Source: Phocaeicola sp.
GTDB taxonomy: Bacteria > Bacteroidota > Bacteroidia > Bacteroidales > Bacteroidaceae
Assembly: GCA_029257865.1 (NCBI GenBank)
Contig: JARIAN010000103.1
Span: 9,776-73,775, forward strand
DNA length: 64,000 nt
Direction of reading: 5' to 3'
The stretch's first letter is position 1; every line of letters begins with the position of its first letter. Shown piece after piece: positions 1 through 17,406 of the stretch. A model generated the notes under the pieces. It was given only the letters and a program-made list of their open reading frames with translations, was not told the origin of the DNA and searched no databases. The translations under genes were made by a program, and so were the position numbers.

Positions 1-1227
1 TAATACAAAAGCGGGATGTGACATAGTACCTTCACAAAAGGTAACATCTCCATTTGGCATTATAAATGCTTGCCACAAATTTCCGGTACACAAAGATCTA
101 TTAGCAAAATATTTATCTTTTTGCGATGCAGTTCCTTCAATACTGTCTTTCGGAATTGCATAAGGCATGGAAAGTGTATAATTATAATTATCCTTTACTT
201 TTTCTATATATTCTGTTATACTATTTATAGCTTCTTCTGAAGGCATATATTCCAAAGACTTATACATTGAAATACCAGCAGGTATTACAGTCACAGAATC
301 TACACTGAATTCAGAAAAGAAATCTAATAATTTACTTAATTCGTCAATAGAACAATTATAATGCGTAAATACAGAATTTATTTTTACACGAATACCATAT
401 TCCTTCAATAATAAAAGCGTTCGTCTCATATTCAAGAGATATTTCTCCCCATCAACTTTCAACAAACGACTAAGTACTTTCGGATTTATACTGTCCAGAG
501 AGATTTGTATCTTCTTTACTCCAACCTTATTTAATCGTCTTATTATATCCTCTGAAATAGGGATCTTTGTAGAAATAACAGGAAACAGATTAAGTTGATG
601 TAAACGAGATAGAATCATTTCCCAATTTTCATCCAAAAGGAACTCTCCCCCCATAATTGTAAAATCGAGAATAGGAGATTCTTCTATTTCATCCAGAAGT
701 TCCATAACCTTCGTTATAGGAAGTTGTCTTTTTTTTCTCATTCTACAATCAGCATAACAATATATACAATCTGTGTAGCAGACTGTATTTATCATATATG
801 TTATATAAATAGGAAAATTTAGCTTGGATGTTTTAAAATCTAGATTTTTGAAGGAAAAATCTGTAGAATTTATATTTTTATCTATTATACAATCATCACT
901 TTTACGCAGCAAAAGATTTTTAGGAAATAAAAACTGTGTATCTCCCCATTCTACTTTGTAAGATTTTTCATTCTCTGTAATTTTATTGATAAATTCAATA
1001 ATTTTCCTGCCGAATTTATTTCCCAAATAACTTCTAGATATTACTTCTTCTATTGTGTTTCCACCATTAAATAAGGCCAATAACTCTGCATAGTAAGGAT
1101 GGATAAAAGAAAAAAAACCTTTAGAATAGTTTCCTTCATTCTCATGACGTGCACACAACAAACTTCTTGTTTCATCATGCCGAATTAAATAATTCGGATT
1201 TAAATATAAAATTTCAGCTTCTGTCAT
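1..1227 (-). CDS. radical SAM peptide maturase with SPASM-like C-terminal extension (partial, C-terminus off the left edge)
   Basis: Absent from the ORF track because it runs off the window. Minus-strand ATG at 1227 (MTEAEILYLNPNYLIRHDE...) stays open for 409 codons to position 1. Contains CYTDCIYC (CX3CX2C, about 751-790) and a MGGEFLL (GGE-type) SAM motif. The N-terminal ~100 aa (FIHPYYAELLALFNGGNTIEEVISRSY...) resemble a PqqD-like RRE. The last residues CTGNLWQAFIMPNGDVTFCEG look like the start of a SPASM/twitch domain. Confidence 0.85.
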   Translation of the reverse strand, partial: MTEAEILYLNPNYLIRHDETRSLLCARHENEGNYSKGFFSFIHPYYAELLALFNGGNTIEEVISRSYLGNKFGRKIIEFINKITENEKSYKVEWGDTQFLFPKNLLLRKSDDCIIDKNINSTDFSFKNLDFKTSKLNFPIYITYMINTVCYTDCIYCYADCRMRKKRQLPITKVMELLDEIEESPILDFTIMGGEFLLDENWEMILSRLHQLNLFPVISTKIPISEDIIRRLNKVGVKKIQISLDSINPKVLSRLLKVDGEKYLLNMRRTLLLLKEYGIRVKINSVFTHYNCSIDELSKLLDFFSEFSVDSVTVIPAGISMYKSLEYMPSEEAINSITEYIEKVKDNYNYTLSMPYAIPKDSIEGTASQKDKYFANRSLCTGNLWQAFIMPNGDVTFCEGTMSHPAFVL

Positions 1228-1264
1228 AATTATCAAATTTATCAAGATCAATACCGTAGGAAAT

Positions 1265-1300
1265 AAAGCTGATCTGAGTTTTGTCACTCAGAACAGCTTT
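1265..1300 (-). terminator. hairpin between precursor gene and maturase gene (possible partial terminator or attenuator)
   Basis: Minus strand reads AAAGCTGTTCTGAGT-GACAAA-ACTCAGATCAGCTTT, with 14 of 15 stem pairs, followed by ATTTCC. It lies 34 nt after the precursor stop and 38 nt before the rSAM ATG. Confidence 0.5.
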
Positions 1301-1333
1301 AATTAATTTCTTCTAGAGTTTATTCTCTAAGAA

Positions 1334-1534
1334 TTAAGGTTGTAGCTTTTCATTCTCCTCTATACTAACAGCTTTTAGACCTCCCCAAAAACATGCTGCT
1401 ACACACCCAAGCCCGCAAACACCCCCATCAACTTCTTCCATTTCATTGAGTTTTAAAAGATCCTCATCTTTTACCTGTTCAGCTACTTTTTCAATTATTT
1501 GCTGCTTCAGTTCATTTCCGTTGTTCTCTTTCAT
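1334..1534 (-). CDS. RiPP precursor peptide with double-glycine leader and Cys-rich core
   Basis: 66 aa: MKENNGNELKQQIIEKVAEQVKDEDLLKLNEMEEVDGG / VCGLGCVAACFWGGLKAVSIEENEKLQP. The acidic leader has hydrophobic residues at -4 (V), -7 (M) and -12 (L) relative to the GG. The core has 3 Cys and a second GG. It sits directly upstream of the rSAM gene and downstream of a C39 ABC exporter. Confidence 0.8.
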   Translation of the reverse strand: MKENNGNELKQQIIEKVAEQVKDEDLLKLNEMEEVDGGVCGLGCVAACFWGGLKAVSIEENEKLQP

Positions 1535-1939
1535 AACACTTCTTGATTAAAAATTAAACAAATATTGACAATTAACTCACAAATATCAAAATAACATTTT
1601 ATACAATCCAGTAAAAATAAACCTATGACTTATATTGTTACCATCATAAAGTAAAGGTGGTACAAGCTATTACTAAACATTTTATGTTTGGACACACCCA
1701 TCATATACAATCACTATAAAACGAATCAGTTTTAAAGGATATATAGCATATTATCTATTTCTCTATAACAAATGTAAGCACAGCCAATCCGCTAAAAGGA
1801 GTTTCGAAATATTTTTTTTCGAAAATCTATCATTTTTACAAGCAAGTTCAAAAAACGAATCGAACAACGTGTCCTTATTCTCATATACGTCTTTAATTCG
1901 TAAACATTCTTCAGTTTTATGAACTTTCAGGAATCATTA

Positions 1940-3078
1940 TTATAAAAGTCTAAATATCGGTCCGAATATTCTACTCAATATACTACGGCTAGAGGTGATT
2001 ATTTCCGCCTGGCCTACTAATCCGACTTCATAGTCAACTTCGTATTTCGAAGTTGTATGCATGCCTTTAGGCAACTCCACCTCCACAGCATAGTTTTTGC
2101 TCGATGGTACATATGTTACTGAGCTTATTTCTCCTACCAGATAACCATACGTATGCGATGGATACTTCGATAACTCAATGTTTACCTTATCGCCTACTGC
2201 AATGTCTGCAATCTGATGCTGCGTCAGTTTATATGTCCCTTGGGATGACCTTTATATTCCGACACCACCGAACAGATTGTATCACCTACCGATACACGAT
2301 TGTTTATACTCCAGCCCGTCCCCAATAGGACTATTCCATCGTTGGCACTCTTTATCAGATACCTGTTTTCCCACGATTTCAGACTGTTTACCATCCTTTC
2401 GTATGCAAGTTCAAGCAATCTCTTATTTTGGGCTGTCTCCAGTTTATGCTCCAGAGCCATTTCAAACAGGTTCCTTTTTACATTCAGGACTGCAAGCTCA
2501 TTCTTCACCGAGTCCTTCAATAGTATTTTTATTTCTTGTTCCAGATAGTTTCTTCTCTGATTATATGCATTATACTCGCTGGCAAATACATTGGCGCGTA
2601 CAGCTTCTGTGAATTGCTCGTATGAGGAAGACATCTCTCCCATTATCAAGTCAAATGGATAGTTATCCAGATACGAAGGATCATCCGTCCTGTAGAACCA
2701 TTCTACCCGCGTCAATACTTTACAGAATTTTTTCACATCCTCAAGCGATGCTGTATTACGTATTATGCCAAGAGTGTCATTCCTCTTTACCCTTGCTCCA
2801 TCGGGCACAAAGAATTCACCTATTATCCCATCCTCGTTGGCTGTTATCCATTCAGTCTTCGAATAGTCGTCTATGGTTATGCCTGTCTCTACGACATCAG
2901 GATACTTGAATATATAACTGCCAGCCAGCAGCACTGCTATCAGGCTATACACTATATAGCTGCCTGTATGTATCAGCCAGTTTGGCATATCACCGAGCAT
3001 ATCACTCGAACTCTCTCTCGAATATAGCTCTATGTTCTCACCCGCAGGTTGCTTCTTTTCATCAGTTTCTTCTTTCAT
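1940..3078 (-). pseudogene. HlyD-family secretion adaptor, interrupted by a single-base frameshift
   Basis: The 284-aa ORF (3078..2224) ends ...SVVSEYKGHPKGHIN*. The shifted frame continues KLTQHQIADIAVGDKVNIELSKYPSHTYGYLVGEISSV...GLVGQAEIITSSRSILSRIFGPIFRLL* down to 1940, which is the expected HlyD C-terminal part. The minus strand reads CAT ATA AAC TGA; one extra A (ATA AAA CTG ACG) would restore a ~380-aa protein. Confidence 0.85.
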
Positions 3079-3084
3079 ATTGAT

Positions 3085-5283
3085 TTACGCATTAAGTTCC
3101 AACTGATTCTTTACCAGCCTATAGTAGTCTCCTTGTCTTGAAATCAGTGATTCATTATTTCCTCTCTCGGTTATTACCCCGTCTTTCAGTACTACTATCT
3201 GGTCAGCATTTCTCACCGTACTAAGGCGGTGCGCTACTACGACCACTGTCTTGTCCTCAAAGAACTGGTTCAGATTCTCCTGTATTGCTTTTTCATTATC
3301 AGTGTCCAAGGCATTTGTAGCTTCATCAAAGAACAGGTAATCCGGATCTCTGTATATTGCCCTGGCAATCAGAATACGTTGCTTCTGGCCTTGGCTTAAG
3401 CCTTGCCCTGTACTTCCGATTCTGGTGTTATATCTCAAAGGGAGCGATTCTATGAAATCTTTTATATTTGCCATCTTTACCGCATACAATAGTCTTTCCC
3501 GGTCAATAACATCTGCATCCGGTGCTATATTATTGGCAATGGTATCGCTGAATATGAATCCTTCCTGCATTACCACTCCACAGTGTTTGCGCCATTCTTT
3601 GAAACTGATTCTTTGTAGCGGCATCTCACCGACCATTACACTTCCCTCCGTAGGTGGATAGAATCCCAACATCAGTTTTATCAGAGTCGTCTTTCCACTA
3701 CCGCTCAGTCCTACTATTGCCGTTGTTTTTCCTGCTGGGATATCCAGATTAATACCCTTTATTATGCGCTTCGACTTCTCCGATCCATAGGTGAACTGCA
3801 GTCCTCTCAATGAGATGGAATCTTTTCCTGAGACTTGATTCACTGTTTCCATCGAGTCAGACTCTTCATTCTCCTTCCCGTGTATCTCTCCAAGCCTTTC
3901 AAGGCTCAGCGTTGCATCCTGCGACTGTTGCATGAAATATACAAACTGTTCTACAGGTCCCTGCATCTGACCGATAATGTATTGTATGGAGAGCATAATA
4001 CCAAGTGTTATATCTCCATTCAATACAGCTGTAGCAGACATTACGGTTATCAGTATATTCTTTACTTCGTTAATCAGTACAGCACCGACCTGCTGCCATT
4101 GCCCGAGATTCAGCGAACGAAGGTTTATTCTAAACAACGAAGCCTGTATATTCTCCCATTCCCATCGTTTCTGCCGTTCACACCCAAGCAGTTTTATATC
4201 CTGCATTCCATACACAAGTTGCATCAGATTATCCTGATTCAGAGCCATTTGCTCAAAGTTTTTTCTGTTAAGGTCTGCACGTTTCTTCATGAACAGTTTT
4301 ACCCATCCTATATAGAATACGCTGAATGCCAGGAATACAAGGAATATTTTCCAGCTGTATATGGCCAGCACAATACCGAAAATGGTTATAGTCAGAACAG
4401 AGAACAAGATATTCAATACCGATTGTGTCAGAAAAGCTTCTATGGTTCTATGATCTTCTATACGCCTTATCAGGTCACCGGCAAGCTTACTGTCGAAGAA
4501 ACGCATCGGAAGTTTCATCAGTTTTACGAGAAAATCCGATATCAGAGCCACATTGACTCTTGTACTTATATGTAGCAGTATGCATCGCCTTATTACCTCT
4601 ATCAGTGTCCTGCTGAATACAAGTATCAGCTGTGCTACCAATATTAACTGTATGAAGTTCATATTCCTGTGCCCGATACCCTGATCGACTATAGTCTGTG
4701 TCAGAAATGGGAATATAAGCTGCAGGATACTGCCTCCAAGTATACCAAGGAACAGTTGCACTATCATTTTCTTGTATGGCCGCACATAGCGTAGCAGATA
4801 CCATAGCGACATCTTTTCATACCTTATCGGCTCTGTTTCATAGAACTGCGGAGTAGTTTCAACCAGCATTGCAATGCCTTTTTCTACACCTCCTTGGCGT
4901 GTGCTTATCCAGCATTTTTTCAGTTCTTCTTCCTCATACTTCAGCAGACCATAGGCCGGATCGGCTATGTGGAAATATGTTTTCCCTTTCGACTTCTCTA
5001 CCCTGTATAGTACTACAAAGTGCATTTGGTTCCAATGCAGAATACATGGCAGCTTAGACTGCTGCTTCAGTTTATCTATAGTTGTGCGTATACCGGTTGT
5101 ACGCAATCCTATGCTCTCTGCTGCTTCACTTATTCCCAGCAGATTTACTCCAGTACGCTGTATATAGGAATTCTCGCGAAGCTGTTGCACGGAAAATTTC
5201 TTTCCGTAATATCTCGCTATCATGCGTAGACAGGTAGGACCACAGTCCATACCGTCAAGCTGTCTGTAGAATGGAAATTTCAT
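3085..5283 (-). CDS. bacteriocin/peptide-cleaving ABC exporter with N-terminal C39 peptidase domain
   Basis: MKFPFYRQLDGMDCGPTCLRMIARYYGK is a C39 catalytic Cys context. It is followed by six-TM ABC membrane domains, Walker A GLSGSGKTT, signature LSQGQKQR and Walker B LFFDEATNALD. The start was moved from the track ATG (5367) to the ATG at 5283, which gives the canonical C39 N-terminus. Confidence 0.93.
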   Translation of the reverse strand: MKFPFYRQLDGMDCGPTCLRMIARYYGKKFSVQQLRENSYIQRTGVNLLGISEAAESIGLRTTGIRTTIDKLKQQSKLPCILHWNQMHFVVLYRVEKSKGKTYFHIADPAYGLLKYEEEELKKCWISTRQGGVEKGIAMLVETTPQFYETEPIRYEKMSLWYLLRYVRPYKKMIVQLFLGILGGSILQLIFPFLTQTIVDQGIGHRNMNFIQLILVAQLILVFSRTLIEVIRRCILLHISTRVNVALISDFLVKLMKLPMRFFDSKLAGDLIRRIEDHRTIEAFLTQSVLNILFSVLTITIFGIVLAIYSWKIFLVFLAFSVFYIGWVKLFMKKRADLNRKNFEQMALNQDNLMQLVYGMQDIKLLGCERQKRWEWENIQASLFRINLRSLNLGQWQQVGAVLINEVKNILITVMSATAVLNGDITLGIMLSIQYIIGQMQGPVEQFVYFMQQSQDATLSLERLGEIHGKENEESDSMETVNQVSGKDSISLRGLQFTYGSEKSKRIIKGINLDIPAGKTTAIVGLSGSGKTTLIKLMLGFYPPTEGSVMVGEMPLQRISFKEWRKHCGVVMQEGFIFSDTIANNIAPDADVIDRERLLYAVKMANIKDFIESLPLRYNTRIGSTGQGLSQGQKQRILIARAIYRDPDYLFFDEATNALDTDNEKAIQENLNQFFEDKTVVVVAHRLSTVRNADQIVVLKDGVITERGNNESLISRQGDYYRLVKNQLELNA

Positions 5284-5394
5284 ATCTCTTATTATTTTAT
5301 ACAAATATCCATTCTTCCAATCCGCTCGCAGGATTTTCTGCACAAAAAAAGCATGATAATTATTCAATTATCACGCTTTTCTAGTCCTCGTACA

Positions 5395-5649
5395 CTATTT
5401 CTTATGAAATAATGTAGTTTCCAACACTGAGAATAAGTCTTCTCCGTCATAATAATAAGTTTGCCTGTATTTATCATACGAGATATCCACTTTCAGGTCA
5501 CATCTGAAATAGTTAAGATATTTGCCCAACTGCGATTTGGACAATCCTACCTTTTCAGCAAACTCTTCTGGTGTGCCGGTGCCCTGTCTGTATATCTGAT
5601 TATGAATGGCACAGAGCTTTTCAAATGATATCACTCTCATGACATTCAT
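5395..5649 (-). CDS. small HTH (HTH_11/DeoR-N-like) regulator
   Basis: 84 aa. GTGTPEEFAEKVGLSKSQLGKYLNYFR matches the helix-turn-helix pattern of HTH_11-type domains. Its ATG overlaps the stop of the upstream gene (ATGA at 5646-5649). Confidence 0.6.
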   Translation of the reverse strand: MNVMRVISFEKLCAIHNQIYRQGTGTPEEFAEKVGLSKSQLGKYLNYFRCDLKVDISYDKYRQTYYYDGEDLFSVLETTLFHKK

Positions 5650-6020
5650 TTTTTAAATTGACTCCATACCCTATCATTAGGATTGGGACTGGTTAATATT
5701 ATAGTATAGATCCCATTATCAGGCAAATCTGAAACTGAAATTGTAATCTGTGCAGAATTCTCTTTAGAAACTACACCACTTTTAAGAATATTATAAAATT
5801 TATCTACAACTTTATAATAAATTAATTTATCAGGATTCCTATTATAAATAATTATTTCGTTTCCTATATATTCGGAGTAAAATGGAATTTCATTAGTAAC
5901 ACTGAAAGATACAGTTCCATCTTTCCAATTACCATTCCAAAAAAAATCTGATAAACACTCAGTAGCAAATACATCTATAGATGTAAAACCAAAAAATAAA
6001 GCTAATATAAAATTTCTCAT
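5646..6020 (-). CDS. small secreted protein of unknown function
   Basis: 124 aa with an N-terminal signal peptide (MRNFILALFFGFTSIDVFA). The mature part looks beta-rich. It is the first gene after a TAACTTTG box and is translationally coupled to the HTH gene. Confidence 0.6.
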   Translation of the reverse strand: MRNFILALFFGFTSIDVFATECLSDFFWNGNWKDGTVSFSVTNEIPFYSEYIGNEIIIYNRNPDKLIYYKVVDKFYNILKSGVVSKENSAQITISVSDLPDNGIYTIILTSPNPNDRVWSQFKK

Positions 6021-6043
6021 AATGGTTATAATTTATTCTGTCG

Positions 6044-6051
6044 CAAAGTTA
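6044..6051 (-). promoter_or_regulatory. Bacteroides-type -7 box (TAACTTTG) for the secreted-protein/HTH/exporter operon
   Basis: Minus strand reads TAACTTTG, an exact match to the TAnnTTTG consensus, 23 nt upstream of the ATG at 6020. Confidence 0.45.
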
Positions 6052-6090
6052 TTAACAATCATTAAAAAAGAACATATATACAATCGGATA

Positions 6091-6178
6091 CTATATAGAC
6101 AATGAAATTACGCCTATCACCCACACACCAATGATTATCAATGTTTTACAATTAATTTTCTTTTAGCTATATAGACAA
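6091..6178. repeat. two identical 12-mers CTATATAGACAA, each containing the palindrome CTATATAG, upstream of the operon promoter
   Basis: Exact copies at 6091-6102 and 6167-6178, with starts 76 nt apart. They lie between the TPR/LuxR gene end (6188) and the -7 box at 6044-6051. Confidence 0.6.
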
Positions 6179-6187
6179 ATTAAAACA

Positions 6188-8008
6188 TCAGTATTCCCAG
6201 ATCCAAACATCAAAACTTTTATCAACTAGGTTTTGCCCCAATTCACCACAAATTTTATTTTTTATTCGGAGTTTACTCCTAGATACAGAAGTTGAAGCTA
6301 TATTAAAAAAGGTAGATATTTCAATTATGGAAAATCGCAATTTAATTAAACAGCAAAGCAAGATTTCATGTTCACTTAAAGTTGGTATCTCATGTAATAA
6401 TCGAAAACTAAAATTCTGAAATACATTATCTGCTACTTCACGAATTTCTTTTAATTGTGATTCATTTAAATATACAGGCTTTGAATGAAGGTTACGCAAT
6501 ACAGGAGTTTGTTTTAATATTTGTAAGCACAATTCTTTTTCCCTTTTTTCCAATAAACTAATTTTATCTGACAACATTTTAACATTTGTTACTTCTATAG
6601 AAGAAATTGAATATGAAGTCATCTTTTCATATAAAAGTTTCTTTTCTACACATAATTGCTCATTTTCTTTTTTTAGATTAAATAACAATTCCTCTTTTTC
6701 TTTAAGAATGCCTTGAGTATTATTCTCTATTTCTATTTGTGATTGTAGTTCTAAAATATATGATTCATTTTTATCAACCTCCAGCTCTTTTTCATGTAAT
6801 TGCAATGCCAACTTAGTCAAATTCTCTTCTTTTTCGTGTATTACAATTCTTTTATGTAAAAGTGTATAAATAAAAACAAACACGAACAATAATAAAAAAA
6901 TAATTGTCAATAACCACCAACAGGTTACATTTGATTTTTCCAATTCCAGCTTTTGTTTCTCCGTAATTAATTTCTCATTATTATATTTTTCTTTATAGGC
7001 TATAATCTCTTTCCCTTTATCAAGGGAAAGAATAGTATCATTATAAAATAATAATGAATCACTATATACCCTCATGTATTTTTGATACTTCGGGGAATTA
7101 GTAAGTTGATACATTGTTTTATAAACAGAACGTTTTGTATATATATTATCTGTCATTAATGCTTTATTAAGATAATTGAAAGCTGTATCAAACTTATTTA
7201 AAGACAAATAAATTTGTCCCTTCAATAAATTAATTTGTGAGGAAGGTTGGAAATTCTTTACTATTTCAAGAGATTTATGATATCTTTTATCTGCAATATA
7301 CACCAATGCTAATTCTTGCCGTACAATATCATAAAAATTATTATTCTTTAACTTTAAAGCTAATTCTGAACTCTGTTCATACAATTGTTCTGCTCGGTTT
7401 AGATTATTCAGCAAACAATAACACCTAGCCAAATATTGTAATGAAATCATTTGATAACGCACATTCCTATCTTTAATAGCATAATCATAAGCTTGTTGAC
7501 AAGCATCTAATGAATATGCTGCAAGATCTCGATATAAATAAATTCTTCCCAATCCAGACATAATCAAATAACCAAGCTTGTAATCATTTGTTTTCTCCAT
7601 CTCGGTCTTGGCCTCCAAATAATATTTGATAGACTCTTCAACATTTCCAAGGTTATAATTAACCCCACCCATATATAAAGCCGACATGGCTTTACATCGA
7701 GCGTTATCAGTTGACATGTAATAATGGTAAGCAAGATGTATTAACGAATCTGATTTAAATTTTACCATTTGCTTATATTTCGCCTGCGTCACCAACAGAC
7801 ACCACAGCGCATGGTTCTCCTTATCAGTTCTTGACGAAGGCTTCTCCATACTTTCCAATATATGCAATGCACTGTCTGGATGGTCGAACATCACCTTTTC
7901 AGCTTTTACAAGTTCTGGTATTTGCTTGTCTACTTGACCACTTCTGCTACATCCTGAAATAATCAAAAAGAAACTAATTGTTATATATATACATATAGAT
8001 TGTTTCAT
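6188..8008 (-). CDS. membrane-anchored TPR-repeat protein with C-terminal LuxR/GerE-type HTH
   Basis: The start was placed at MKQSICIYITISFFLIISGCS (lipobox ISGC). About 350 aa of TPR-like repeats follow, then a TM helix (WWLLTIIFLLLFVFVFIYTLL) and a coiled-coil stretch. The C-terminal LSEHEILLCCLIKLRFSIIEISTFFNIASTSVSRSKLRIKNKI matches the GerE/LuxR HTH pattern. Confidence 0.8.
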   Translation of the reverse strand: MKQSICIYITISFFLIISGCSRSGQVDKQIPELVKAEKVMFDHPDSALHILESMEKPSSRTDKENHALWCLLVTQAKYKQMVKFKSDSLIHLAYHYYMSTDNARCKAMSALYMGGVNYNLGNVEESIKYYLEAKTEMEKTNDYKLGYLIMSGLGRIYLYRDLAAYSLDACQQAYDYAIKDRNVRYQMISLQYLARCYCLLNNLNRAEQLYEQSSELALKLKNNNFYDIVRQELALVYIADKRYHKSLEIVKNFQPSSQINLLKGQIYLSLNKFDTAFNYLNKALMTDNIYTKRSVYKTMYQLTNSPKYQKYMRVYSDSLLFYNDTILSLDKGKEIIAYKEKYNNEKLITEKQKLELEKSNVTCWWLLTIIFLLLFVFVFIYTLLHKRIVIHEKEENLTKLALQLHEKELEVDKNESYILELQSQIEIENNTQGILKEKEELLFNLKKENEQLCVEKKLLYEKMTSYSISSIEVTNVKMLSDKISLLEKREKELCLQILKQTPVLRNLHSKPVYLNESQLKEIREVADNVFQNFSFRLLHEIPTLSEHEILLCCLIKLRFSIIEISTFFNIASTSVSRSKLRIKNKICGELGQNLVDKSFDVWIWEY

Positions 8009-8370
8009 AATATCGTTTATTTTTTGCAAAATTATAAAAAGAAACAATATTTCCTATACTTACAATACAATTATTACTGCATTACTTCCGAATAAATACA
8101 CTTAGTTATCCAGTTGAATTTAGGGCTTTCCCCAAAGATCCTATCAGATGTTAAAAAATGAAAACAGACCATCTGATACTCGCTCGTTTATGTACAGGTA
8201 TCCGAGCGTTGCCAAAGAAAGGATTCTCACGGCTCCATTTTTCGCTATCATCCTATATATCAAACCAATAAACCATATTTTATATTCTTTCATTTTCATC
8301 CAAAGAGCGCATAATCCGGGCAAAAAACACCCCTTCTCCTCCCGTATTTTGAAACCTTCGGAGCATACCG

Positions 8371-9939: not shown

Positions 9940-11157
9940 ATGGAAGAAACCAAACATATTAAAATAAGCGATTACAACTATCCGCTGCCGGACGAAAGAA
10001 TCGCAAAATTCCCTCTCCCGGTAAGAGACCAGTCGAAACTGCTGATATATCGCCACGGAGAAATCAGCGAAAACAAATTCACCTCCCTGCCTGAATACCT
10101 GGAAAAAGGAACGCTGATGGTATTCAACAACACGAAAGTGATTCAGGCCCGACTGCATTTCAGAAAAGAGACCGGAGCCCTGATTGAAATATTCTGCCTG
10201 GAGCCAATACAGCCTAACGATTATGTGCTCAATTTCCAGCAGACCCAACATGCTGCATGGCTCTGCATGATTGGCAATCTGAAAAAATGGAAAGAAGGTG
10301 CGCTCCATAAAGAGATGGAAGTGAAGGGAAAAACCATCACACTGACCGCCACAAGGGGCGAATGCAAAGGCACCAGCCACTGGGTAGACTTCACATGGGA
10401 CAACGACAGCATTACTTTCGCCGATATTCTGGAAGTGTTTGGCGAACTGCCCATCCCTCCTTACTTGAACCGTGAAACACAGGAAAGTGACAAAGAGACT
10501 TATCAAACGGTCTACTCCAAAATCAAAGGTTCGGTGGCTGCTCCTACAGCAGGACTTCACTTTACCGAAAGAGTACTGAACAGCCTCAACGAAAAAGGAG
10601 TAGAACTGGAAGAGGTGACCCTGCACGTGGGGGCAGGAACTTTCAGACCGGTAAAGAGTGAAGAGATTGAAGGGCATGATATGCACACGGAATATATCTC
10701 TGTAAACCGCTCTACCATCGACAAACTCATTGCCCACGAAGGGAAAGCCACAGCCGTAGGCACCACATCAGTGCGTACCCTTGAAAGCCTGTACCATATC
10801 GGAGTAACTATCAGCCGGTATCCGGAAGCTACGCAAGAAGAACTGCACGTAAAACAATGGCAACCTTATGAAACAGAAACTGCCCTGACGGCGGTTGAAT
10901 CGCTACAGGAGATTGCAGCCTATATGGACCGCAACCATTTGGATGCCCTCCATACCAGCACTCAGATCATCATTGCACCGGGATATCAGTACCGCATAGT
11001 CAACCAGATGGTCACTAATTTCCATCAGCCTCAAAGCACGCTGCTGTTGCTTGTCTCTGCATTCACCAAAGGAAACTGGCAAGCTATCTACCGCTACGCA
11101 CTGAGCCACGACTTCCGCTTCCTCAGCTACGGCGACTCTTCTTTACTCATCCCATAG
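9940..11157 (+). CDS. queA: S-adenosylmethionine:tRNA ribosyltransferase-isomerase
   Basis: Begins ISDYNYPLPDERIAKFPL..RDQSKLL. Contains GSVAAPTAGLHFT and ends with the NFHQPQSTLLLLVSAF motif. A TATCTTTG box lies at 9900-9907. Confidence 0.95.
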   Translation: MEETKHIKISDYNYPLPDERIAKFPLPVRDQSKLLIYRHGEISENKFTSLPEYLEKGTLMVFNNTKVIQARLHFRKETGALIEIFCLEPIQPNDYVLNFQQTQHAAWLCMIGNLKKWKEGALHKEMEVKGKTITLTATRGECKGTSHWVDFTWDNDSITFADILEVFGELPIPPYLNRETQESDKETYQTVYSKIKGSVAAPTAGLHFTERVLNSLNEKGVELEEVTLHVGAGTFRPVKSEEIEGHDMHTEYISVNRSTIDKLIAHEGKATAVGTTSVRTLESLYHIGVTISRYPEATQEELHVKQWQPYETETALTAVESLQEIAAYMDRNHLDALHTSTQIIIAPGYQYRIVNQMVTNFHQPQSTLLLLVSAFTKGNWQAIYRYALSHDFRFLSYGDSSLLIP

Positions 11158-12768: not shown

Positions 12769-15700
12769 ATGAAAAAATTTCTAAGACGAGCTGGAATTAT
12801 TATTTCCATCCCTTTTATTATATTTACGATACTCTGTATTTTGGTATATCTCCCTCCTATCCAAAATTTTGCGGTAAGGACTGCTACCAAATATGCCTCG
12901 GAAGCGACCGGAATGAACATCAATATAGAAAGAATTTCCCTCTCGTTCCCTCTAGACATTGTTGTACACAACACCTTAATTATAGACCAACAGGATACCA
13001 TATTGAATGCGCATAGGCTAAAAGCCGAAATACAACTGTGGCCTTTGCTGAAAAAACAGATTGAACTGGACGGACTTGAATTGAAGCAAGCATCGGTAAA
13101 TACCGCCAACCTGATAGAAGGCATGAAACTGCAAGGCGAGCTCGGCAAACTGTTCATCGCCTCGCATGGAGTCAACTTGACTCCAGAAACAGCCGTTGTC
13201 AACACCGTGTCACTGGAAGATACCCATCTGGCCATCTGCCTCACCGACACCACTGCCGCCGACACTGCCTCCACCGACCCGCTCTACTGGAAGATACACC
13301 TGAAAGACGTGGACTTCAAGAATGTATCTCTTGCCATGCAAATGCCGCTCGACAGTATGGATTTCTCCATTGCTTTAAGCAAAGCTGCACTGCGCAATGG
13401 CTGGGTAGACTTGCATAAATCGGCTTATGCTGCCGAGAAGTTCATGCTGACAGAAGGAAAAATCAATCTGCGCAGCGGAAATGTAATGGAAGACATCAAA
13501 GGCTTCGACCCTTCAAACATCAGCATCACACAACTGAACCTTGCTGTAGACTCCATCTATTTCGCCGACCAAGATATCCAAGCACAAATCAAGAAGTTCG
13601 TGCTGAAAGAACGTTCCGGCATCGAAGTGACTTCCACCAAAGGAAGTCTGCTCTCAGATGCTAAAGGACTTCATATACCTACCCTTAAACTAAAAACTTC
13701 CGATTCTTATCTGGAAATGAAGGCCTCCATGGACTGGGCTGCTGCCGACTTGTCGCACAACGGAAGTATCTATGCGCGATTAATGGCAGACATCGGAAAG
13801 AATGATTTAGGACGCCTGGCAGGTACCGACTCGGAGGAACTGATTAAAGCCTTACCGAACCATCCTCTGCAAATACGTGCCGGTGTAGACGGAAGCATCA
13901 ATCACTTGCGACTGTCTTCTTTATCGGCCGGCATACCGCAGGCTTTCCAATTTTCAGCGAATGGTGAACTATTATATGCCATCGACTCGCTACGACGCAA
14001 CGGATCTCTTAATCTGGAACTGACTACTGAAAATATGAACTTTATTAAAGTTCTGGCTCCGGGATTCCACATTCCAGCCGACTTAAAGTTATCGGGACAA
14101 GCCGCTGTAGAAAAAGACTCAATAGGTACTGTTTTGACTTTACTCACCGGTGGAAATCAAGGAAAAGTACAAATTAAAGGTCAGTATAATCTGCATCATG
14201 ACTTTTATAATGCCAATCTGCAGATTGACTCACTCAATCTGCACCAGTTCATGCCTAAAGACACCTTGTATCGCCTGTCAGCATCCTTGCTTGCCGAGGG
14301 TCAAGGATTTGATATCTTTTCACCAAAAACAAAAGCCTTAGTGGAAGGGGAATTGCATTCTTTACAATTTGGGCATCAAGTTCTTGCAGGTATTGACTTC
14401 AATGCTTCACTCAAAGAAAGCAAAGCCAATGCTATCCTAAATATCAAGAATAAATGGACTGATACCAAAGCAGAACTGCAAGGAGACATTACAGCCGAAC
14501 AGATTACTGCTACGCTGAGCACCAAAGTAAAATACTTGGATTTAAAGGCAATGGATATCACAAGTAATCCATTGACTCCATCATTTAACCTATCAGCCAA
14601 AGTTAAAACTGATATGAATATGGTTCATCTGCTGCGTACAGACATGACCAATATTAAGCTTAGCAGCAAAGTGGGTGTATTCAATATGAAAGATATCCAT
14701 GCTACTGCCAACTTCCGCCAAGATTCATTACTAAGCTATATTCATGCCGGAGACTTAGTGTTTTGGTTTCAGTCACCAAACAACATGGACCACCTAATGG
14801 CTTCCATCAATCGTTTTTCTACTGAATTGGACGCACAATGGAAAAGAAAATCATTCAACCAAGAGGTATTGAAAAAAATGATGCCTGATGCCCATTTCGG
14901 TATCTATGCAGGACACGACAATCCATTGTCGAACCTACTGGCTACCAATAAAATCAAATTCAACAAGTTAAACTTCAGGTTTGAGACATCACCACAAGAA
15001 GGAATACATACGTATGCCAACTTGTATGGTTTCCGCACAGACAGCTTAAAACTGGATACCATCTTCTTTAATGCTTATCAAGATTCCAGTTTCCACTTTG
15101 CGGGTGGGGTAAAGGCACTTCCTTATAAGAAACAGGAAGCCTTCAACATCGACCTTACCGCCGGGTTCAAGTCGGAAAACGGAGATATCAACCTGGTCTA
15201 TCGTAACGAAAAAGGACAAGAGGGAGTCAATTTGGGCACATCCATCTTCTTGCGCGACAAGGGAATGAGTATCCACCTCTCTCCTGCCAACCCTACATTG
15301 GTATACCGTACCTTCCAAGCCAATCCGGACAACTATATCTATATGAACGATGAAGGAAGAATTGATGCCGACCTGGATTTGTTTGACAAGAAACAGTCGG
15401 GACTGTCTCTTCACTCTACCCCCGACTCATTGGCTTTACAAAACCTGACATTGGGTATACACAACATCGACATCGAAGAATTTCAACGTGTCATACCTTA
15501 TATGCCAGACATAGCCGGTTTTATCAATGCAGAAACACATATCATTCAAACGAAAGAAAATATGCAGATTTCCGCAGAAACAGGAATCAGCAAACTAGCA
15601 TATAACAAACATTACCTAGGTGACTTAACCATGAGTTTGGCATATCTCCCCCATTCAAAAGATACCCACTATGCCGATGGATTCATTGCATTAGACGGGA

Positions 15701-17406
15701 AAGAAATAGCCAGCCTAAGCGGAACATATTCAACGGAAGAATCAGATGAAAACAACAATCAATTTGACTCTGAAATCCAATTGACACACTTTCCTCTCAA
15801 CATGGCCAATGCCTTCATTCCAAATCAAATGGCCATCATAGATGGAAAACTAGATGGAAAACTATCCTTAACTGGAAGTACTGCACAACCCATATTCAAC
15901 GGACAACTTACTTTAGACCAAGTAACCGTTGATGTGCCACAAGCTTCACTCAAACTAGCCATGGATAACAAGCCCATAATAATAAAAGAAAGTAAACTTA
16001 CATTTAGCCAGTTTCATATACTGACGGAAGGACAATCACCTTTCCTTATCAACGGAACAGTTGGTCTTGACGATATGAATTTTAATTTAAAAATGAATGC
16101 TAAAAACTTTGAGCTTTTCAATGCAAAAAAAAACAAAGAATCGCTTGTATATGGCAAACTTTATGTGGATATGAATTCAACAATTAAAGGGAATGCTGAT
16201 AACCTGAAAATTAGAGGAAACATGAATATCCTAGGTAGCAGTGACTTTACTTATATTCTTAAAGACTCCCCGTTGACAGTAGAAGACCGGCTTAATGAAA
16301 CCGTAACGTTTGTAAACTTCAACGACACACTTGCCAACATGTCCAATATGCCTACGCTCTCTCTTGGAGGAATTGACATGAGAATGACAATGCACATTGA
16401 TGAAGCAGTCCAAGCTAAGATAGACTTGAATACCGACGGCAGTAACTATATGAAACTGGAAGGTGGAGGAGACTTATCTTTCCAATACCAGCCTGACGGC
16501 ACAATGGTTATGAACGGAAGGTATATTCTTTTAAATGGCGAAATGAAATATCAGTTGCCCATCATGCCTACTCAACTTTTCCACATCAAAGAAGGCAGCT
16601 ATATTGAATGGACAGGAAATATTATGAACCCCAAAATGAATATCAAAGCCACAGAAAGAGTGAAAGCGTCCGTATCAAGTGACAATGGAACTTCACGAAA
16701 TGTAAACTTTGATGTAGGTATCAGTTTAACTAACCGACTGGATAATTTGGGATTTACCTTTACACTTGAAGCACCTGATGATGGAGCCATGCAAAACGAA
16801 TTGGCTGCGAAGTCACCTGCCGACAAGAATAAACTGGCTGTAACGATGCTGGTAACAGGACTTTACTTGGGAGATAATGAAAATGCGTCAGGAAAAGCTA
16901 ACACGAATAATACCCTAAACTCTTATCTACAAGGACAAATCAACAAGATGGCAGGGAAACTGGCTGGAAGTGCTTTGAAAACAGTCGATATCAACCTAGG
17001 CATTGAAAACAACCAGAATGAATCGGGAGGGTCTAGTACTGACTATAGTTTCCAGTTTGCAAAACGATTCTGGAACAACCGTTTCCAAATCATTATCGGC
17101 GGAAAGATTTCAACAGGAAATAATGTACAACAAGACGATTCTTTCATTGATAATGTATCTATTGAATACCGACTCGATAAGAGTGGAACTCGATACATCA
17201 AGATTTTCCACGACAAAAACTATGAAAGTATTCTTGATGGAGAGGTAATAGAAACCGGAGCCGGTGTGGTACTCAGAAAAAAGGTTAGCCGCTTGGGTGA
17301 ACTTTTCATCTTTCAAAATGACCGCAAAAAGAAAAAGTCGGACAAAAAGAATAAGGACAAAAAGAATAATGAAGCTAAAGAAGAAAAAGAGGATGAAAAA
17401 GAATAG
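12769..17406 (+). CDS. tamB: translocation and assembly module protein TamB (DUF490-type)
   Basis: 1545 aa with an N-terminal membrane anchor and a long beta-rich repetitive body. The C-terminal region has the DUF490-like ending IEYRLDKSGTRYIKIFHDKNYESILDG. It is followed by an overlapping BamA-family gene. Confidence 0.9.
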   Translation: MKKFLRRAGIIISIPFIIFTILCILVYLPPIQNFAVRTATKYASEATGMNINIERISLSFPLDIVVHNTLIIDQQDTILNAHRLKAEIQLWPLLKKQIELDGLELKQASVNTANLIEGMKLQGELGKLFIASHGVNLTPETAVVNTVSLEDTHLAICLTDTTAADTASTDPLYWKIHLKDVDFKNVSLAMQMPLDSMDFSIALSKAALRNGWVDLHKSAYAAEKFMLTEGKINLRSGNVMEDIKGFDPSNISITQLNLAVDSIYFADQDIQAQIKKFVLKERSGIEVTSTKGSLLSDAKGLHIPTLKLKTSDSYLEMKASMDWAAADLSHNGSIYARLMADIGKNDLGRLAGTDSEELIKALPNHPLQIRAGVDGSINHLRLSSLSAGIPQAFQFSANGELLYAIDSLRRNGSLNLELTTENMNFIKVLAPGFHIPADLKLSGQAAVEKDSIGTVLTLLTGGNQGKVQIKGQYNLHHDFYNANLQIDSLNLHQFMPKDTLYRLSASLLAEGQGFDIFSPKTKALVEGELHSLQFGHQVLAGIDFNASLKESKANAILNIKNKWTDTKAELQGDITAEQITATLSTKVKYLDLKAMDITSNPLTPSFNLSAKVKTDMNMVHLLRTDMTNIKLSSKVGVFNMKDIHATANFRQDSLLSYIHAGDLVFWFQSPNNMDHLMASINRFSTELDAQWKRKSFNQEVLKKMMPDAHFGIYAGHDNPLSNLLATNKIKFNKLNFRFETSPQEGIHTYANLYGFRTDSLKLDTIFFNAYQDSSFHFAGGVKALPYKKQEAFNIDLTAGFKSENGDINLVYRNEKGQEGVNLGTSIFLRDKGMSIHLSPANPTLVYRTFQANPDNYIYMNDEGRIDADLDLFDKKQSGLSLHSTPDSLALQNLTLGIHNIDIEEFQRVIPYMPDIAGFINAETHIIQTKENMQISAETGISKLAYNKHYLGDLTMSLAYLPHSKDTHYADGFIALDGKEIASLSGTYSTEESDENNNQFDSEIQLTHFPLNMANAFIPNQMAIIDGKLDGKLSLTGSTAQPIFNGQLTLDQVTVDVPQASLKLAMDNKPIIIKESKLTFSQFHILTEGQSPFLINGTVGLDDMNFNLKMNAKNFELFNAKKNKESLVYGKLYVDMNSTIKGNADNLKIRGNMNILGSSDFTYILKDSPLTVEDRLNETVTFVNFNDTLANMSNMPTLSLGGIDMRMTMHIDEAVQAKIDLNTDGSNYMKLEGGGDLSFQYQPDGTMVMNGRYILLNGEMKYQLPIMPTQLFHIKEGSYIEWTGNIMNPKMNIKATERVKASVSSDNGTSRNVNFDVGISLTNRLDNLGFTFTLEAPDDGAMQNELAAKSPADKNKLAVTMLVTGLYLGDNENASGKANTNNTLNSYLQGQINKMAGKLAGSALKTVDINLGIENNQNESGGSSTDYSFQFAKRFWNNRFQIIIGGKISTGNNVQQDDSFIDNVSIEYRLDKSGTRYIKIFHDKNYESILDGEVIETGAGVVLRKKVSRLGELFIFQNDRKKKKSDKKNKDKKNNEAKEEKEDEKE

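Follow-up and report, generated by a model that had tools for sequence, protein, structure and literature searches.

In thuricin CD, the donor residues Cys5, Cys9 and Cys13 are linked to acceptors at residues 21, 25 and 28 (PMC8172795). Genome mining by Fernandez-Cantos et al. (2023, PMC10352776) described Bacteroidales gene clusters that combine radical SAM (rSAM) enzymes with peptidase-containing ABC transporters (PCATs), with BGC2 of Phocaeicola vulgatus as a notable example. The locus analysed here is an uncharacterised member of the same known class, the rSAM-modified RiPPs exported by PCAT; the cluster type is already known from genome mining and its enzyme family is widespread, while its product is uncharacterised. 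The window, which is the whole 64,000-nucleotide stretch of DNA analysed, covers one end of a RiPP island with several precursors, with the genes for regulation and export and the first of those for biosynthesis, in a chicken-gut-type Bacteroides near B. caecigallinarum. The locus is a RiPP gene cluster in which small Cys-containing peptides would be made, cross-linked and exported. The preliminary description had listed a GG-leader, Cys-bearing precursor beside an RRE-rSAM-SPASM enzyme (RRE, RiPP recognition element), a C39 ABC exporter and a membrane-anchored regulator, and every listed feature was found again at its coordinates; all genes and elements given below with coordinates lie on the minus strand. 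The statement that no characterised product of such a locus was known also stood, as none was found in the searchable literature. An rSAM-modified, PCAT-exported peptide is the likely explanation of the locus as a whole, in which thioether bridging, export and regulation are steps that we infer.

The precursor gene A1 (1334..1534) encodes 66 aa. The first 38 are a double-glycine leader (...LLKLNEMEEVDGG) that follows the consensus at L-12, E-8, M-7, V-4, G-2 and G-1, and the remaining 28 form the core, VCGLGCVAACFWGGLKAVSIEENEKLQP, whose three Cys make up the motif CxxxCxxxC. The gap between A1 and the HlyD-like gene was exactly 405 nt (1535-1939), and the leader, core and gap reported earlier for this ORF were all confirmed. 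The exact A1 peptide was present on 9 metagenome contigs. In all eight close loci, the precursor adjoined an orthologous rSAM/SPASM gene and its core had CxxxCxxxC straight after GG, with the three Cys invariant. An upstream GG-leader Cys-rich small ORF accompanied 55 of 89 enzyme-family genes, compared with 5.6% of random control windows. As the pairing of peptide and enzyme is conserved in other genomes, the counter-evidence that the preliminary description had named for other genomes, a 66-aa ORF not conserved beside homologous rSAM genes, was not encountered.

The hairpin noticed ahead of the rSAM gene was recovered as a stem-loop between A1 and rSAM1 (1264..1301) with an MFE of -28.1 kcal/mol (z -4.3; 0/200 shuffles as stable). 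A strong hairpin of different sequence occupied the same position in 8/8 close loci, and the element is probably a partial terminator or attenuator setting the precursor:enzyme ratio. These features bear on whether the 66-aa ORF could be an unmodified class II (bacteroidetocin-like) bacteriocin with the rSAM gene as a mere neighbour. The leader did show weak matches to Bacteriocin_IIc (1e-3) and the lactobin/cerein 7B family, and a PCAT alone is enough for class II peptides. This reading is nevertheless very improbable, as the adjacency of peptide and rSAM genes is kept across a family diverged to 28-35% identity, the conserved hairpin ties A1 and rSAM1, and the core motif follows the rSAM clade (CxxxCxxxC with rSAM1-type and CGLGC[FY] with rSAM2-type enzymes).

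The rSAM1 maturase gene (1..1227) leaves the window, which holds the N-terminal 409 of 486 aa. The arrangement described earlier was confirmed, namely an RRE-like N-domain (approximately residues 1-110), CYTDCIYC (C150/C154/C157), GGE (193-195) and the beginning of a Cys-bearing SPASM region, the first two Cys of which (C380 and C398) lie within the window. The proposed profile search detected PF04055 in the window enzyme (6.3e-16) and the SPASM profile PF13186 in the full-length forms of L087, L002 and P0001. Seven SPASM Cys were conserved across 97 homologs, and the family comprised 833 clusters at E<=1e-30, mostly of Bacteroidota. None of the curated rSAM maturase models reached its cutoff with rSAM1 (in the best 25 of 37 matches of the window enzyme at E<=0.01) or with the full-length forms; the AlbA, SkfB and StsB models scored the rSAM1-type enzyme at 24-47 bits against cutoffs of 300-850.

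The product of the window locus is probably thioether-bridged. The best sequence match of rSAM1 was SkfB, a sactisynthase, followed by SuiB. When a full-length homolog sharing 97% identity was modelled by AF2 (pLDDT 94.6), the model matched SuiB (5v1s) best, over its whole length (Foldseek, E 2e-19), followed by SkfB, PqqE and CteB. SuiB forms a Lys-Trp C-C bond rather than a thioether, so that this best structural match counts against thioether bridging and raises the alternative of a C-C or C-O cross-link, as made by SuiB or the darobactin enzymes, or of another Cys-directed reaction, with the Cys otherwise used. The core in the window indeed contains W12 and K16, and that of L084 contains W12 and K15. 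However, Trp and Lys varied among the eight close cores while all three Cys were invariant, and the rSAM1 substrate is Cys-rich without conserved Lys/Trp, unlike that of SuiB. CteB-type SPASM domains have seven Cys and SuiB-type domains eight, and by these counts the seven-Cys SPASM of rSAM1 fits the CteB type. A non-thioether modification is thus considered unlikely.

For the thioether-bridged product, the RRE-like N-terminal domain of rSAM1 would bind the A1 leader, and hydrogen abstraction at a core residue by the [4Fe-4S]/SAM site would follow. Thioether bridges could then form between carbons and the thiolates of the three invariant Cys with the help of the SPASM clusters, and the seven conserved SPASM Cys would fit a CteB-like open iron site. 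The Cys2/6/10 spacing, the 25-28-residue core and the conserved A-[V/I] at 17-18 would suit a thuricin-CD-like nested hairpin, but short-range ranthionine rings are an equally possible geometry. Distant members of the enzyme family pair with long CxxxC-repeat peptides in which such a hairpin has no room, which counts against the nested arrangement.

The preliminary description had called the module complete-looking, which did not hold. Both in a contig of 99.97% identity and in B. caecigallinarum (95%), the locus runs at least 8.7 kb further left, and this extension supplied the rest of the rSAM gene sought there. It also encodes a TonB-receptor-like outer-membrane barrel of 773 aa, another barrel and two additional precursor-enzyme pairs, namely precursor 2 with rSAM2 and precursor 3 with rSAM3. 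The HlyD gene in the window, moreover, is broken. The loci L001, L002, L082 and L087 carry the same gene set as the window locus, and among 81 family loci a PCAT was found in 53 and an outer-membrane barrel in 41.

The PCAT gene (3085..5283), taken as the 732-aa call of L085/L087, encodes Peptidase_C39 (1.2e-31), ABC_membrane (8.7e-33) and ABC_tran (1.6e-30) domains. Its C39 domain has the Gln/Cys/His/Asp residues (YRQLDGMDCGPTCL ... MHFVVL ... IADP), and the alignment with PCAT1 (4ry2, E 2.8e-107) covered the whole protein, as did that with ComA (8hf7). The exporter pair described earlier was hence correct for the C39 ABC exporter, whereas its HlyD partner is present but frameshifted. The HlyD-type membrane-fusion gene (1940..3078) is split into an N-terminal fragment of 284 aa (2224..3078) and an out-of-frame C-terminal fragment of about 97 aa (1940..2233; TIGR01843 1.3e-11, profile 314-413) by a 1-base deletion in the A-run at 2228-2230, which reads AAA here and AAAA in intact alleles. 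In L087 and L002 both parts share one reading frame, giving 379 and 380 aa, respectively. PCAT would cut after GG and pump the peptide out, assisted by the HlyD adaptor and a partner in the outer membrane. The outer-membrane protein of the extended locus is TonB-receptor-like, not TolC-like, and its role in export is therefore an assumption.

As the adaptor gene of the window allele is frameshifted, export may be impaired, and this copy of the locus may be non-functional. It is possible, though doubtful, that the locus is decaying or silenced in the source genome, the broken adaptor abolishing secretion. The AAA allele occurred in two further independent assemblies (L088 and L089), and the gene is intact by contrast in the 99.97%-identical contig and B. 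caecigallinarum. On the other hand, the remaining genes are all intact and near-identical to those of the contig with the intact allele, a homopolymer slip could be reversible, and the adaptor is undetectable in some related clusters anyway (PMC10352776).

The regulator described earlier as a membrane-anchored TPR protein was confirmed as such. The ORF spans 6188..8047 with an ATG at 8008, giving a one-component membrane regulator of 606 aa (6188..8008; TPR_12 7.5e-10; NCBIfam BT3442_fam 1.7e-29, below cutoff). An AF2 model and hydropathy indicated an N-terminal lipobox (LIISGC), a single TM helix (362-385) with HKR after it and a coiled coil on the cytoplasmic side; a periplasmic TPR domain and a C-terminal three-helix HTH-like region are predicted. 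The label LuxR gained no Pfam support, with no GerE/LuxR match even at E<=5. The best meaningful PDB match of the C-terminal profile, the LuxR-type 3clo, was not significant (E 0.39), leaving a plausible helix-turn-helix pattern. Downstream lie the genes for a secreted DUF3244-like protein of 124 aa (5646..6020; signal peptide; PF11589 2.3e-4, below the gathering score), whose orthologues are annotated PF11589, and for a putative helix-turn-helix protein of 84/81 aa (5395..5649; HTH_3 3.6e-3, below cutoff). The ATGA overlap noted between the two is real, with gene callers starting the latter at the second ATG (81 aa). Orthologues of the small HTH protein (37-46% identity) occur beside regulator and DUF3244 genes in 8 related loci. 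The pairing of BT_3441 and BT_3442 has been described (PMC2954219).

A promoter-like element upstream of A1 (1765..1806; GAAACTCCTTTTAGCGGATTGG-N8-TACATTTGT) has the Bacteroides -7 box (TAnnTTTG) without TTTG at -33. A second copy precedes the start codon of the PCAT gene by approximately 18 nt (5301..5333; TCCTGCGAGCGGATTGG-N10-ATTTGT). The element is common to the upstream regions of A1, PCAT and precursor A3, and its pattern occurs twice in the window, where 0 matches were expected. The three units would probably be driven from this activator-type element, under the control of the lipoprotein-TPR/TM/HTH regulator, the DUF3244 protein and the small HTH protein. The shared element without a -33 box, together with the predicted periplasmic TPR domain and the receptor-type barrel, could also suit a cell-cell signal rather than a bacteriocin, which would be sensed by the TPR domain, autoinduce the common promoters and perhaps re-enter through the TonB-receptor-like barrel. 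A signalling role is rather improbable, since regulators of 57-63% identity head loci without such peptide genes (MACPF, TolB-like/NVEALA and barrel-only), and the regulator module is exchanged between loci otherwise 95% identical. As the family also heads such unrelated cargo, a specific link between regulator and peptide stays putative.

When compared with SuiB (streptide), SkfB, CteB and PqqE, peptide maturases of the RRE/SPASM or twitch rSAM kind with solved structures, rSAM1 has the same three-domain fold (5v1s, TM 0.60-0.68; 6efn, 6c8v, 5why) with CxxxCxxC, GGE and the SPASM Cys set, but shares 12-17% identity and has Cx6C instead of Cx3C as the last SPASM spacing. The window PCAT resembles PCAT1 and ComA in full-length alignment and intact C39 catalytic residues, and differs in that it is paired, for a diderm envelope, with an HlyD adaptor and a barrel not of the TolC type. 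The GG-Bacteroidales and CXXX-repeat systems (TIGR04114-04118), partly of the same phylum, likewise place GG-leader or CxxxC-rich peptides beside rSAM genes, but their models showed sub-threshold similarity, with all cutoffs missed widely. The suggested membership in the TIGRFAMs GG-Bacteroidales system (TIGR04148 maturase, TIGR04149 target, TIGR04150 pseudo-rSAM) was not borne out and is extremely unlikely. The general logic of GG leader, Bacteroidales and rSAM is in common, and the precursor of a distant relative scored 18.5 bits on TIGR04149 (cutoff 25). However, TIGR04148, present in the searched profile library, was absent among the best 25 of 37 matches of the window enzyme (E<=0.01) and for full-length homologs at E<=1e-8/1e-10; A1 gave no match to TIGR04149, and TIGR04150 matched none of the scanned rSAM enzymes of the extended locus at E<=1e-8, the locus having no pseudo-rSAM partner.

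The clusters of PMC10352776, including BGC2, are likened here by description. They share rSAM-only tailoring, GG-motif precursors, PCAT, a membrane-fusion protein, a TPR gene and a separately placed outer-membrane protein, with the product uncharacterised in both; the rSAM1 family, the CxxxCxxxC core, the common promoter element and the three-precursor layout were not defined in that work. The thuricin CD type (type I nested-hairpin; TrnA/B and TrnC/D) has donor Cys at i, i+4 and i+8 near the N-terminus of an approximately 25-30-residue core (PMC8172795), as does the window locus, and its clusters resemble the extended locus in having several precursors, several rSAM/SPASM enzymes of RRE and SPASM architecture, and ABC export. 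The window enzyme differs in reaching no sactisynthase model cutoff, the thioether chemistry being predicted here. The host is Gram-negative, the leader would be cut by a C39 PCAT at the GG site, and the locus has in addition an HlyD adaptor, a TPR membrane regulator and an outer-membrane barrel of TonB-receptor-like type.

The left end of the window carries a genuine and conserved RiPP island; its enzyme clade is uncharacterised, but its general kind has already been recognised. Part of the island lies outside the window, and this allele has a broken adaptor gene. The ORF listing and three-frame translation bore out the preliminary description of an array running in a single direction on the minus strand. 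From right to left, the array consists of a regulator gene (6188..8008, longest ORF to 8047), a gene for a 124-aa secreted protein with a weak match to DUF3244 (5646..6020), a gene for an 84-aa protein with a weak match to HTH_3 (5395..5649), the gene of a peptidase-containing ABC transporter (PCAT; 3085..5283), a HlyD-like gene (1940..3078), a gap of 405 nt, the 66-aa ORF for the precursor A1 (1334..1534), a hairpin (1264-1301; -28 kcal/mol, z -4.3) and the gene of the radical SAM enzyme rSAM1 (1227..1; Radical_SAM, PF04055, 6.3e-16), which runs out of the window. The ATGA overlap of the 84-aa gene with the 124-aa gene was confirmed, but the true start of the former may be its second ATG. The leader of A1 matches the double-glycine (GG) consensus at positions -12, -8, -7, -4, -2 and -1, and nothing convincing was found among the small ORFs of the 405-nt gap. 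To the right of the regulator are housekeeping genes (Smr/DUF2027, QueA and TamB). The GC content forms a mosaic, with 25-33% in the precursor, radical SAM and regulator genes (window 1-2000 and 5500-7500), 39-44% in the PCAT and HlyD-like genes (2000-5500) and 41-49% in the housekeeping flank beyond 8500.

The HlyD partner described for the exporter is present as a gene, but its reading frame is split in this allele; one frame ends at 'GHIN*' and another resumes at 'YKLTQHQ...', with TIGR01843 matching both fragments. A run of four A has lost one base and reads AAA at 2228-2230 (minus strand) versus AAAA in intact alleles. The gene is intact in the metagenome contig L087, 99.97% identical to the window, and in the locus L002 of Bacteroides caecigallinarum An428a, while the AAA allele was also found in two other independent assemblies (L088 and L089). 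The frameshift is a real polymorphism and not an obvious sequencing error, in a run that is possibly prone to slippage.

The same contig showed that the module, complete as it had looked, is not complete within the window. The exact A1 peptide was present on nine metagenome contigs, and L087, whose 99.97% identity spans window 1-6708, carries further genes leftwards. These are the remainder of rSAM1 (486 aa in full, with SPASM), a 773-aa outer-membrane barrel (L087 6962-9283; OMP_b-brl_3 and TonB_dep_Rec_b-barrel with an N-terminal CarboxypepD_reg), a 72-aa precursor A2 (...VQGG followed by ...ETCGLGCF...) overlapping rSAM2 (496 aa, SPASM), a precursor A3 (...VDGG followed by GVIDNKCVHNHVSQCGCQ...) paired with rSAM3 (442 aa), and a second barrel of 774 aa (12967-15291). 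The enzyme rSAM3 resembles the CteB/PapB/CefB-like clan at 103-129 bits, below the cutoffs. L002 has the same layout, with 95% nucleotide identity from rSAM1 through the 84-aa gene. The genomic contexts of the window locus and L002 differ, and a related cluster on the contig L082 is flanked by Toprim and HTH_17/HTH_3 genes (13927-16655) typical of mobilisable elements; these two observations hint that the island is mobile. A search of a plasmid collection gave no match. Three related contigs (L004, L033 and L078) are labelled as Lachnospiraceae MAGs yet carry typical Bacteroidales-type loci, and the precursors of L004 and L082 are identical; the three are probably mis-binned.

In 97 homologs of rSAM1, the CxxxCxxC motif (C150/C154/C157) and G193/G194 of the GGE motif were invariant, E195 was nearly so (at least 90%), and the seven SPASM Cys (380, 398, 439, 442, 448, 455 and 475) were conserved at 99% or more. 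The window itself holds just the first two SPASM Cys, and PF13186 was found in the full-length forms. The enzyme has two features expected of thioether-RiPP maturases, the CxxxCxxC/GGE core and a C-terminal SPASM region with about 7-8 Cys (two auxiliary clusters). The fold was assessed on an AF2 model of a 97%-identical full-length homolog (pLDDT 94.6), whose N-terminal domain, predicted as three beta strands followed by three helices (pLDDT >90), may be a RiPP recognition element (RRE), with SuiB aligned over the full length. SuiB came first in Foldseek (E 2e-19; about 500 columns aligned, N-terminal domain included), followed by SkfB, PqqE and CteB, and SkfB and SuiB also led when the family profile was compared with PDB sequences. 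In a seven-Cys SPASM set such as that of CteB, one iron site stays open for a substrate thiolate, and by this analogy the set in rSAM1 would favour thioether formation. The putative Cys-to-carbon thioethers of the mature peptide are suggested only by the invariant Cys triad of the core.

As an alternative, the preliminary description had named membership in a non-RiPP radical SAM family, such as the anaerobic sulfatase maturases. The enzyme did score with their model, only at a generic radical SAM level far under the cutoff, and the peptide context also speaks against this identity; the same holds for the cofactor maturases MoaA, NirJ, PqqE and MftC. The curated sactipeptide and ranthipeptide maturase models (AlbA, SkfB, StsB, SCIFF, PapB and CefB) gave at best 24-47 bits for rSAM1 versus cutoffs of 300-850, and no other maturase model curated in NCBIfam was close to its cutoff either.

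The reading of rSAM1 as a peptide maturase had also been made to depend on conservation of the 66-aa-type ORF beside homologous genes, and this pairing held. Upstream of 55 of the 89 genes of the rSAM1 family there was a small ORF in which two or more Cys follow a G[GAS] site, while random windows drawn from the same loci gave a rate of 5.6%. The enzyme had 151 homologs in the word index, and a profile search detected 833 clusters at 50% identity (E<=1e-30), with end-to-end alignment for most of the best 150 of them; the species-representative genomes scanned contained 242 relatives, overwhelmingly in Bacteroidota. The homolog search with A1 itself returned only four near-identical peptides, the word index being too insensitive in this case. 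In the eight closest loci (enzyme identity of 45-97%, plus one at 35%), the core starts with xCxxxCxxxC directly after GG in all cases and the remaining positions vary. The rSAM2-type paralogues are paired with ...CGLGC[FY] cores and the rSAM1 type with CxxxCxxxC, so that the motif of the core follows the clade of the enzyme. In all eight close loci, the precursor and enzyme genes are separated by a strong stem-loop, with unrelated sequences, which fits an attenuator holding precursor transcripts in excess. Of 81 loci searched by tblastn, many of them on short contigs, 53 had the PCAT and 41 the barrel, mostly adjoining the enzyme gene.

The possible membership in the GG-Bacteroidales system of TIGRFAMs (TIGR04148/04149/04150) was rejected after a comparison with each of the three models. 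TIGR04148 (cutoff 300 bits) was absent among the best 25 matches of the window rSAM1, and full-length homologs and the L087 enzyme gave no match to it at E<=1e-10 or 1e-8; the model was present in the library, as a 41.6-bit match to an unrelated radical SAM protein confirmed. TIGR04149 (cutoff 25 bits) gave no match to A1 at E<=0.01, and the precursors of distant relatives scored 11.5-18.5 bits. No match to the pseudo-radical SAM model TIGR04150 was found at E<=1e-8 among the scanned L087 proteins (A2, A3, the HlyD protein, the first barrel and the three radical SAM enzymes), and all three L087 enzymes have Radical_SAM domains. The CXXX-repeat system was rejected as well; its enzyme model TIGR04115 was not among the rSAM1 matches, and the precursors of distant relatives gave 9.8-18.2 bits with its target models (TIGR04114/04117/04118) versus cutoffs of 20-50.

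The exporter has the organization of a PCAT, with an N-terminal Peptidase_C39 (PF03412, 1.2e-31), ABC_membrane (PF00664) and ABC_tran (PF00005), the motifs DCGPTCL and MHFVVL, and an intact catalytic set of Gln/Cys/His/Asp. It aligned to PCAT1 (4ry2) over residues 2-726 and also to ComA over the full length, and its NCBIfam scores fell short of the equivalog cutoffs (435 bits versus 853 for TIGR03796, for instance). The conserved, presumed outer-membrane partner is not a TolC/OEP channel; it is a barrel of the TonB-dependent-receptor type whose N-domain is CarboxypepD_reg, and its gene adjoins the radical SAM gene in 41 of the 81 related loci. Six related loci (L001 6603-7508, L082 5598-6497, and also L003, L004, L005 and L067) have an additional gene flanked by the small HTH gene on one side and the PCAT gene on the other. 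It encodes a conserved protein of 299-301 aa with no Pfam or NCBIfam match, and is missing from the window and from L002.

The regulator is built as a lipoprotein-TPR domain, a single transmembrane segment, a coiled coil and a C-terminal three-helix region, and the prediction places the TPR domain on the periplasmic side. The LuxR label given to it found no support; the C-terminus (pLDDT about 50 in the AF2 model) had no GerE (PF00196) match at E<=5, an orthologue gave a faint 14 bits, and the C-terminal profile retrieved from PDB only 3clo at a non-significant E of 0.39. The protein matched TPR_12 of Pfam (7.5e-10) and, with 103 bits (E 1.7e-29) over residues 1-481, BT3442_fam of NCBIfam (NF053779), missing the cutoff of 940 bits; judged from these scores, it is a relative of the BT3442 family and not an equivalog. 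In B. thetaiotaomicron, BT_3442/BT_3441 stand at the head of the MACPF cluster BT_3442-BT_3433, and the link of the DUF3244 protein to 3d33 comes from the same report (PMC2954219); a sequence search of PDB with the DUF3244 protein found nothing. Regulator homologs (57-63% identity) also head other cargo, such as TolB_like/NVEALA gene arrays and tandem pairs of regulator and OMP_b-brl_3 genes (L091 10001-21827; L092 5492-14339). The family is not RiPP-specific but a reusable module for secreted-factor loci in Bacteroides. The 95% nucleotide identity between the window and L002 extends over 1-5824 and stops abruptly at 5824 inside the DUF3244 gene, beyond which the regulators share just 62% and the DUF3244 proteins 58% protein identity; because of this break, the regulatory head (5824 to 8047) appears from the alignment to have been exchanged through recombination.

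A promoter-like element of about 40 nt, GAAAcTCCTnnnAGCGGATTGG-N8-TAcATTTGT, lies upstream of A1 (1765-1806, minus strand), with further copies upstream of the PCAT gene (5301-5333, minus strand) and upstream of A3 (L087 about 11030-11075); the pattern had two matches in the window versus none expected. It has the Bacteroides -7 box without the -33 TTTG, suggesting that it needs an activator, and may serve as an operator for the regulators of this locus. Ordinary TAnnTTTG boxes precede the regulator and DUF3244 genes, at 26-31 nt from the start codons. The exact 10-mer was not conserved in loci at <=65% protein identity, and the conservation of the element therefore rests solely on its repetition within the locus. 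Scans for sigma-70 promoters and terminators were no better than shuffles; an E. coli-type consensus is also unsuited to Bacteroides.

Bacteroidales dominate gut communities, and we know of no modified (class I) bacteriocin of this order that has been characterised. We regard the locus less as a surprise than as a good target for experiments. It offers a compact test set of three precursor/radical SAM pairs, one exporter and a defined promoter element, and the natural intact and frameshifted adaptor alleles provide a ready-made comparison for export. As the rSAM1 family comprises at least several hundred sequence clusters unnamed by current curated models, one solved product would give annotation to many gut and environmental Bacteroidota clusters, and would also tell if hairpin sactipeptides occur in diderm bacteria.

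In the proposed mechanism, the RRE-like domain of rSAM1 would bind the A1 leader, radical H-abstraction would be followed by formation of Cys-S-C bonds at the three invariant Cys, and the PCAT would cut after Gly38 and export the peptide, aided by the HlyD adaptor and the outer-membrane partner. Bacteroidales radical SAM clusters of this general type, with GG-motif precursors, PCAT, adaptor, outer-membrane protein and TPR gene have been genome-mined, with the product not characterised (PMC10352776), and no characterised product for such loci was found in the literature searched. We consider it rather unlikely that in these Gram-negative bacteria the products of the family are nested-hairpin sactipeptides of the thuricin CD type (or carry a new Cys cross-link) and that the TonB-receptor-like barrel and the periplasmic TPR domain of the regulator together act in a loop of peptide re-uptake and sensing that autoinduces the shared promoters; if true, this would amount to a type of peptide-based quorum or antagonism circuit that is not known to have been described in Bacteroides. 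For the proposed mechanism itself, thuricin CD offers a parallel. Its Cys5/9/13 are bridged to residues 21/25/28, and two precursors occur with two radical SAM enzymes (PMC8172795); the donor spacing Cys2/6/10 here, in a core of 25-28 residues with a conserved A-[V/I] at 17-18, resembles this arrangement. The resemblance to thuricin CD is an analogy and not membership, and the long CxxxC repeats in distant members of the family suggest short-range rings instead.
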